DNA of 64,000 nt, from the NCBI RefSeq assembly GCF_003018255.1, contig NZ_CP027440.1; one strand, given 5' to 3'. The notes beneath the pieces are model-generated. The model was not told the DNA's origin, searched no databases, and saw nothing but the letters and a program-made list of their open reading frames with translations. The first letter of the stretch is position 1; every line of letters begins with the position of its first letter. A program made the position numbers and the translations under genes. The DNA comes from Escherichia coli. GTDB lineage: Bacteria; Pseudomonadota; Gammaproteobacteria; Enterobacterales; Enterobacteriaceae. Positions 59,233-61,320 of the stretch are shown here, in pieces.

Positions 59233-59270
59233 CAATGATGACAGCCATTACTGGCTGTCAGATTGAAAAT

Positions 59271-59873
59271 TTAGTGGTTAACGAATTCCCCATCCAGATA
59301 AACTTTGCCTTTTTCCACATGCATGACTAAACCATCCAGATAATCAGGTTTAAATGTCGCATCACGCTTATCTTTAGCAATATATGTCAGGCAATGATTA
59401 TGGGTGAAAATAACGATATTTTTATCAGGCGCTTTGCTTTGTAAGTCCTTAATTGCACTATAAATCTCATTACCGCACTGAAGAAGTCGTTTATCTACCG
59501 TCAGCTTTTTACCCGCTGAAAACCAGGTCGCCGACTGAATGGTCCGGACGGTATTACTGGAATAAAGATCGAAATCAGGGATATCAGCACTAAAAGCGTT
59601 GCCCAGTTCACGGGCATCCTGGGTACCTTTAACCGTAATACCTGTTTTATCTGACAAGCATTGGTTGGTTGAACGATCGCAACGTTCAGCATGGCGAAAC
59701 AAAACGACAACCGGATGCTGCTGTGCCAGTCTGGCCAGCGTTTTATTGTCGATACGTGGCAAACCATTGCTACTCCAGGCGGCATGAGTACCCAGTCCGG
59801 CAATTGCAGCGAGCGCCAGTAAAATGATGAAATATTTTTTTGACTTCAACGAAGAGCGGCAAAAAGCTAACAC
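59271..59873 (-). CDS. ais: Ais (PmrG), LPS core heptose(II)-phosphate phosphatase
   Basis: 200-aa product from a GTG start inside the 219-codon ORF ([20 protein letters not shown]...); histidine-phosphatase RHAER motif ([11 protein letters not shown]). Confidence 0.8.
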
Positions 59874-60065
59874 GTAAACTCCACCTATAGACAAGCGCAA
59901 CCAGACAATTACCGTGAAATTGAGCGACATTTCTGGCGATAATTAGCAGTTGGTGTAATATTAAAAATCCTGCGATGCCGGCAAAATGCCTCAAAATTTT
60001 GCCAAATGCAAAGCCTAAATAAGAAAAAATATAAAAATTTCAATATTTACGTCTAATATTAGTTT

Positions 60066-60083
60066 CTTAAGGTTAAGTTAATA
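60066..60083 (+). promoter_or_regulatory. Candidate PmrA (BasR) box of the arnB promoter
   Basis: CTTAAG-GTTAAG-TTAAT direct hexamer repeats about 80 bp upstream of arnB, resembling the CTTAAT-N5-CTTAAT PmrA box. Confidence 0.55.
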
Positions 60084-60162
60084 TTCTATCCTTAAAATTT
60101 TGCTCCAAATGGCAAAATATACACAACACTCTTTATAGCAAATATAAGTGGACAGGTATTCA

Positions 60163-61320
60163 ATGGCGGAAGGAAAAGCAATGTCAGAATTTTTGCCTTT
60201 TTCGCGACCAGCAATGGGCGTGGAGGAACTCGCTGCAGTTAAAGAGGTTCTCGAATCCGGTTGGATCACAACCGGTCCGAAGAATCAGGCGCTTGAACAA
60301 GCCTTTTGCCAGTTGACGGGAAATCAGCATGCCATCGCGGTCAGTTCAGCCACCGCCGGAATGCATATCACGCTAATGGCGTTGGAAATTGGCAAGGGCG
60401 ATGAAGTGATTACGCCTTCCCTGACCTGGGTTTCAACCCTCAATATGATTTCCTTGTTGGATGCAACGCCGGTAATGGTGGATGTCGACCACGATACGCT
60501 GATGGTCACGCCTGAAGCGATCGAGTCAGCCATTACGCCACGCACTAAAGCCATCATTCCGGTGCATTATGCCGGTGCGCCAGCAGATATTGACGCCATT
60601 CGCGCCATTGGCGAACGTTACGGCATCGCAGTTATCGAAGATGCTGCCCATGCCGTCGGTACGTATTACAAAGGCCGACATATTGGCGCAAAAGGTACCG
60701 CTATTTTTTCGTTTCACGCCATCAAAAATATTACCTGTGCGGAAGGTGGCCTGATTGTTACAGATAATGAAAACCTTGCCCGCCAGCTACGGATGCTAAA
60801 ATTTCACGGTCTGGGTGTCGATGCCTATGACAGACAAACCTGGGGCCGTGCACCGCAAGCTGAAGTCTTAACGCCGGGCTATAAGTATAATCTGACCGAT
60901 ATTAACGCCGCGATTGCCCTGACCCAGTTAGCCAAATTAGAGCACCTCAACACCCGTCGGCGCGAAATTGCTCTGCAATATCAACAAGCACTGGCAGCTC
61001 TCCCTTTTCAGCCATTAAGCCTTCCCGCCTGGCCGCACGTTCACGCCTGGCATCTGTTTATTATTCGTGTCGATGAACAACGTTGTGGTATCAGTCGCGA
61101 TGCGTTGATGGAAGCGTTAAAAGAAAGAGGCATTGGTACCGGGTTACATTTCCGCGCCGCTCACACACAAAAATATTATCGCGAGCGTTTTCCCACGCTG
61201 TCGTTACCGAATACCGAATGGAATAGCGAACGCATCTGTTCGTTGCCGCTGTTCCCGGATATGACCACCGCCGATGCCGACCGCGTCATCACAGCCCTTC
61301 AGCAACTCGCAGGACAATAA
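60163..61320 (+). CDS. arnB: UDP-4-amino-4-deoxy-L-arabinose:oxoglutarate aminotransferase
   Basis: DegT/ArnB-family PLP aminotransferase; start set at [10 protein letters not shown] (385 aa; alternative ATG at 60181 gives 379 aa). Confidence 0.9.

Follow-up and report, generated by a model that had tools for sequence, protein, structure and literature searches.

The ais gene of this Escherichia coli strain very likely initiates translation at a GTG codon that lies 19 codons inside the longest open reading frame (ORF), and the ATG that opens this frame would be spurious. The window (the whole stretch of 64,000 nucleotides that was analysed) carries ais between nudI and arnB, in a region for which 5,417 of the 5,426 complete E. 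coli genomes searched give a match, with 100% identity in strain 7/2. The GTG start is already known, as it matches the reference annotation, and is ordinary, GTG starts being common: GUG opens approximately 14% of E. coli genes, and initiation at the three canonical start codons runs at 10–100% of the AUG level (10.1101/063800). The gene and its start codon are:

59271..59873, minus strand: ais (pmrG-like) coding sequence, 200 amino acids plus stop; lipopolysaccharide (LPS) core heptose(II)-phosphate phosphatase with a histidine-phosphatase fold (NF011945, PF00300, RefSeq)
59871..59873, minus strand: ais GTG initiation codon, codon 20 of the longest ORF (sequence, RefSeq, orthologues, population)

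Position and annotation of the GTG start

The program-made ORF list gives the longest minus-strand frame as 59271–59930, a protein of 219 amino acids with ATG as its first codon. Codon 20 of this frame is GTG in the window sequence (59873–59871). The minus strand around it reads ...ctatAGGTGGAGtttacGTGttagctttttgccgc... and, over a longer stretch, ...gtctatAGGTGGAGtttacGTGttagctttttgccgctcttcgttgaag... An earlier note on this DNA had proposed that ais starts at this GTG, directly before the conserved Ais N-terminus, with the ORF track's ATG 19 codons further 5'. Translation after the GTG matches the N-terminus that it quoted, and 57 nt separate both candidates (59930 to 59873), equal to 19 codons. 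Its proposal of a GTG start agrees with a strong Shine-Dalgarno (SD) sequence, with conservation, with the family profile and with the reference annotation. An in-frame GTG within an ORF is unremarkable by chance. This one stands apart because it is the only candidate with a real SD, is GTG across four genera and coincides with position 1 of the family profile.

The comparison with reference annotations that the earlier note recommended returned this same GTG in K-12 MG1655 and in 13 other E. coli genomes. RefSeq places K-12 MG1655 ais (b2252, NP_416755.1) at 2365018–2365620, a coding sequence of 603 nt and 200 amino acids with a GTG start, and a gap-free alignment assigns its first base to window position 59873. 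The 13 further E. coli genomes that we sampled, chosen to span the range of identity, all carry the PGAP annotation of a 603-nt coding sequence with a GTG start. PGAP relies on the same family models, which makes the RefSeq annotations non-independent evidence on the start. In the protein database, the 200-residue Ais dominates with a cluster of 3,315 members, and the 219-residue forms are rare automatic calls. Literature searches on the start or promoter of pmrG/ais found no experiment that maps the N-terminus of Ais or its site of initiation, and the PDB has no solved structure for Ais or any relative that could provide a construct N-terminus. Mature Ais cannot report the translation start if its signal peptide is cleaved.

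Shine-Dalgarno sequence and candidate starts

Three features on the minus strand bear on the choice of start:

59879..59886, minus strand: Shine-Dalgarno sequence AGGTGGAG, with the core GGAG at 59879–59882 and a 5-nt spacer (TTTAC) to the GTG (anti-SD duplex, orthologues)
59874..59930, minus strand: leader segment read as a 19-codon extension by the longest-ORF rule, with the spurious ATG at 59928–59930 (lack of an SD, polymorphism, indels, stops)
59847..59849, minus strand: in-frame TTG at codon 9, rejected here as a start; it would give MKSKKYF... (lack of an SD, not conserved)

The search for a ribosome binding site upstream of the GTG, also recommended in the earlier note, identified AGGTGGAG 5 nt away. 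Its duplex with the 3' end of 16S rRNA has a free energy of −5.9 kcal/mol, more favourable than at any other candidate start. The upstream ATG (+0.2 kcal/mol) and the in-frame TTG at codon 9 (position +8; +1.3 kcal/mol) have no SD, and two in-frame TTGs at −9 and −7 reach −3.0 kcal/mol with unsuitable spacing. Hence, no candidate other than the GTG, whether in the leader or in the early ORF, has a real SD. The site has the hallmarks of canonical SD-led initiation at a near-cognate (GUG) codon: a stretch complementary to the anti-SD within 4–9 nt upstream (GGAG, 5-nt spacer) and a conserved start preceded by a non-conserved frame. The GUGUG/AUGUG motif of dual-frame initiation (PMC9841429) does not apply to this site, where the sequence is GUGUUA.

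Conservation across orthologues and within E. coli

We examined orthologous loci from one genome per species, taken from GTDB. All 17 loci of Escherichia, Salmonella, Citrobacter and Intestinirhabdus have GTG as the codon aligned to Ais residue 1, and a purine-rich SD (GGTGGAG, GAGAGG or GTGGAGAG) precedes it by 5–7 nt in each of them. A distant Cedecea homologue (42% identity) is the sole case of ATG at the aligned start. The codons that follow vary synonymously between genera (TTA, TTG, CTG or CTT for leucine 2; GCT, GCC or GCA for alanine 3) and are therefore translated. Of 25 diverse homologues, furthermore, 22 have their N-terminus at the alignment column of the GTG start.

The frame 5' of the GTG is not conserved. 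Most of the 17 orthologues have an in-frame stop 1–10 codons upstream of the GTG: at −1 in E. coli E69, −4 in both Salmonella, −5 or −6 in several Citrobacter, −9 in Intestinirhabdus and −10 in E. albertii. Frame-breaking indels (1 and 2 nt elsewhere in Escherichia) and in-frame stops interrupt the segment in other Escherichia, Salmonella and Citrobacter. Among the orthologous loci, the upstream ATG is in frame in the window and in one near-identical Escherichia genome only. The triplet pair at this position also varies within E. coli: ATG TCG in the window, O157:H7 and others, ATG TAG in the K-12 lineage, and AAG TCG in a third lineage (EC28, Ecol_745 and NR1441). By contrast, all 13 E. coli sequences compared share an identical SD and GTG. 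The ATG TAG of the K-12 lineage is a minimal start-stop within the ais leader (window 59928–59925, minus strand, where the window has ATG TCG); it lacks an SD and is, for this reason, probably inert.

For a population test, a 35-mer centred on the start was searched in its GTG and ATG forms against 5,426 complete E. coli genomes. ATG was present at the ais start in 0 of the 5,403 genomes that carry the locus. The two common variants of the 35-mer carry silent changes at the third base of codons 6 and 7.

Alternative starts

Initiation at the upstream ATG (59930) would yield a protein of 219 amino acids with an N-terminal extension of 19 residues. This ATG opens the longest ORF, lies inside the mapped transcript and is used by a few automatic gene calls in ENA/nr (P0001–P0005). 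Against it, the codon has no SD (+0.2 kcal/mol), is followed directly by TAG in K-12, is replaced by AAG in the third E. coli lineage and, in all other species, is either not in frame or cut off by stops. The extension that it adds falls outside the family profile (NF011945) and would disrupt the n-region of the signal peptide. We regard this start as extremely improbable. The earlier note had described the extension as non-conserved, which is borne out by the variation of the ATG among orthologues and within E. coli, and had named conservation of the upstream ATG in orthologues as the observation that would overturn the GTG start. The orthologue alignments have no conserved ATG and, as far as these sequences go, the upstream ATG is already refuted as a conserved start.

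A second alternative is translation wholly or partly from the in-frame TTG at codon 9 (59849), which would give Ais a textbook-looking signal peptide with an n-region of more typical length. The same codon is ATG in some alleles of the Escherichia clade (P0025 has methionine at residue 9), and gene callers sometimes pick it (P0033, P0035 and P0061). However, the TTG has no SD (+1.3 kcal/mol), and its counterparts in Salmonella (ATT) and Citrobacter (GTA) are not start codons. Furthermore, residues 2–4 (L-A-F/L) are conserved despite synonymous DNA changes, indicating that they are translated and arguing against a start at codon 9. A contribution from this codon is therefore quite improbable, though a shade less so than that of the upstream ATG, and initiation at the GTG remains the preferred reading.

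Family assignment and predicted signal peptide of Ais

The window protein was tested for membership in the Ais/PmrG subfamily of LPS core heptose(II)-phosphate phosphatases (NF011945, PRK15416). It matched NCBIfam NF011945 with 390.6 bits (E = 1.2e-117; curated cut-off 142 bits). The alignment covers profile positions 1–201 of 201 and residues 20–219 of the long ORF, with the GTG codon at profile position 1. The match to the PmrG equivalog model (NCBIfam NF052369, profile positions 8–155 of 168) scored 145.4 bits, which is below the cut-off of 170, and NCBI accordingly gives the protein the name Ais and not PmrG. On these profile scores, the protein is classed as a member of the Ais subfamily and not as a strict PmrG equivalog. 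The low score of E. coli Ais against this model (145.4 versus 170 bits) is found even though the literature treats Ais as the PmrG orthologue.

The conserved domain of branch 1 of the histidine phosphatase superfamily (PF00300) was detected at residues 75–148 of the long form (36 bits; cut-off 21.7). Across 25 orthologues, R60, H61, R64 and H160 do not vary, providing the RH(A/G)xR motif and the downstream histidine expected of the superfamily. Removal of phosphate from heptose(II) of the LPS core, like PmrA-dependent induction, is known only from the Salmonella PmrG literature, as cited in PMC8129183. The genomic context is also that of Ais/PmrG proteins: the gene is divergent from arnB/pbgP with a PmrA box in between (nudI-ais-arnB in RefSeq).

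59772..59870, minus strand: predicted Sec signal peptide, codons 2–34 (hydropathy profile and inspection)

The predicted signal peptide has an n-region with R6, K10, K12 and K13 (charge +4), a hydrophobic h-region of 14 residues and a c-region (THAAWS) that is followed by the conserved SNGLPRI; a 10-residue stretch is conserved here across 25 orthologues. By inspection and hydropathy, these are the attributes of a Sec signal peptide cleaved by signal peptidase I (positively charged n-region, hydrophobic h-region of 10–15 residues and small residues at −3 and −1) ahead of S35. A start at the ATG would set 19 mostly hydrophobic residues before the charged n-region.

The length of Ais varies in E. 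coli (200, 203 or 206 amino acids) with the copy number of a 9-bp unit that encodes ARL (..KTLARLARLARLAQQ..). The repeat site is at window 59721–59738 (minus strand CTGGCCAGACTGGCACAG, residues LARLAQ), and a LAALAALAKQ variant in Salmonella (204 amino acids) parallels it at the same site. The databases also hold frameshifted or truncated ais alleles of 164 (264 members), 162 (440) and 186 amino acids (209). The number of such calls, with hundreds of member sequences, suggests that ais is often pseudogenised in E. coli lineages. One sampled genome, EC28, also has a frameshift in arnB.

Transcript leader and intergenic region

The transcribed leader and the regulatory elements around it are listed below, together with a terminator-like element at the other end of the gene:

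59874..59976, minus strand: ais 5' untranslated region, 103 nt from the Cappable-seq primary transcription start site (TSS) to the GTG (TSS mapped via gap-free alignment)
59983..59995, minus strand: conserved promoter block TTTGAGGCATTTT, which reads TTTAAGGCATTTT in most species (seen at all 17 enteric loci)
60066..60082, plus strand: PmrA/BasR box CTTAAGGTTAAGTTAAT, pointing at arnB (consensus match, position, conservation)
59239..59260, minus strand: terminator-like hairpin after the ais stop, between the convergent ais and nudI (consensus scan; 9-bp stem with 5 GC pairs)

A re-analysis of Cappable-seq data for MG1655 lists primary TSSs at 2365723 (minus strand) for ais and 2365854 (plus strand) for arnB (PMC12987492, Table 1). 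The TSSs of ugd, arnB and ais are induced together in K-12 (PMC12987492). Gap-free alignment places the ais TSS at window position 59976 and that of arnB at 60107. The ais TSS lies 5' of both candidate starts, and we set it aside as an arbiter between them. The leader contains the upstream ATG, and the TSS alone therefore does not exclude this codon in strains of the window type, where the frame is open. A riboswitch or other structured leader was also set aside: the leader RNA folds no better than shuffled sequences (z = +0.94) and has no match in Rfam at E ≤ 1.

The promoter block is located 85–126 nt 5' of the GTG in 17 of 17 enteric loci. Its CATTTT (59983–59988) occupies positions −12 to −7 of the mapped ais TSS and is the putative −10 element. 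The block also contains a hexamer resembling a PmrA half-site (TTTAAG), which we rejected as a binding site because its position (−20 to −15 of the TSS) is not a normal one for an activator. The PmrA box proper has one mismatch to the consensus YTTAAK-N5-YTTAAK, and no other site in the intergenic region is a good match. It spans −41 to −25 of the arnB TSS, and every orthologue locus has it conserved. Over the window as a whole the motif shows no enrichment, so the box is assigned by its position. A second box with two or fewer mismatches was not found near the ais promoter (59976–60030).

The distance between the PmrA box and the ais promoter block (59983–60082 in the window) takes three values only among the 17 enteric loci. 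Most Escherichia, together with C. amalonaticus S646 and Citrobacter NCU1 and R56, have 87 bp; Salmonella, Intestinirhabdus and several Citrobacter have 77 bp; and Escherichia sp. E1V33 has 66 bp. Steps of approximately 10.5 bp, about one helical turn, suggest that one PmrA box may serve both divergent promoters under a face-of-helix constraint. Such a shared box would be proximal for arnB and centred near −98 for ais. At the arnB end (60148–60183, plus strand), annotations of the arnB start disagree: K-12 (NP_416756.6) starts at 60163 and PGAP, in other strains, at 60181 (MSEFLPF...). The longest arnB ORF starts at a GTG at 60148.

Is the GTG codon under selection?

The earlier note had raised the idea that a weak start codon may matter for PmrA-dependent expression of ais. 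In its stronger form, selection would keep GTG as a weak start across four genera and cap Ais output when PmrA/BasR fires. GTG is invariant across the four genera at a divergence that leaves none of 28 four-fold degenerate sites invariant (pairwise four-fold differences to Salmonella and Citrobacter of 0.57–0.74), it is present in 5,403 of 5,403 E. coli genomes with the locus, and a strong SD accompanies it. For lacI, furthermore, a GTG start has been shown to be functional (PMC11445065). Saturated four-fold sites are, however, the wrong control for a start codon, in which a C or T abolishes or weakens initiation, and we rejected the argument for selection drawn from them. The matched control instead took sites that have G in the window and where a G-to-A change is silent, and asked whether A ever appears. 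Two of seven and then three of nine such sites never show A, the latter across the same 17 sequences, and the result is not significant. The invariance of GTG has a neutral expectation of roughly one in three and is, from this control, compatible with neutrality. Within E. coli, a single site in a background of low diversity has little power; GTG also opens approximately 14% of genes and retains 10–100% of AUG-level initiation (10.1101/063800). Our literature search found no measurements of ais expression or fitness. From this analysis, we consider selection for a weak start to be unlikely, at perhaps one chance in a handful. If it were operating, a GTG-to-ATG change would be deleterious under PmrA-inducing conditions, as it is for lacI. 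It would then add one more case of start-codon tuning in a stress regulon, a modest result.

Proposed expression of ais

The evidence is consistent with an ordinary mode of expression. The ais mRNA would start near 59976 with an unstructured leader of 103 nt, in which the upstream ATG is presumably a chance in-frame triplet that does not serve as a start. Positioning of the 30S subunit by AGGTGGAG, 5 nt before the GTG, would then lead to SD-led initiation at 59873–59871, probably with somewhat less efficiency than an ATG would confer. The predicted product is a 200-residue precursor whose first ~34 residues form the Sec signal peptide. Removal of this peptide on export would deliver an enzyme with the histidine-phosphatase fold to the periplasm.

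Ais is an LPS-core phosphatase of the polymyxin-resistance regulon. In this strain, the longest-ORF rule over-extends its gene by 19 codons, and the curated GTG start appears to be right. The GTG start is relevant to Ais expression constructs, reporter fusions and signal-peptide predictions; otherwise, the matter is one of annotation hygiene.

Comparison with known systems

The lacI gene resembles ais in being an enterobacterial gene with a conserved non-ATG start. Changing GTG to ATG in lacI alters the protein level and gut fitness (PMC11445065), an analogy that serves only as a lead for ais. The closest system is ais of K-12, the same gene at the same nudI-arnB position with the same 603-nt coding sequence and GTG start. 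Over the 1-kb region, the window and K-12-lineage genomes share 98.5% identity. The two differ at Ais residue 15 (F/I) and after the upstream ATG, where the window has TCG and K-12 has TAG; the 19-codon frame is open only in the window-type allele. PmrG of Salmonella enterica occupies the orthologous position, divergent from pbgP/arnB, and is approximately 67% identical to the window Ais. It also has a GTG start with an SD (GAGAGG) and a 5-nt spacer, and shares the MLAF... N-terminus and the AWS(G/S)NGLP sequence after the signal peptide. Unlike the window, Salmonella pmrG has an in-frame TGA 4 codons before the GTG, and its PmrA box lies 77 bp, rather than 87 bp, from the promoter block.
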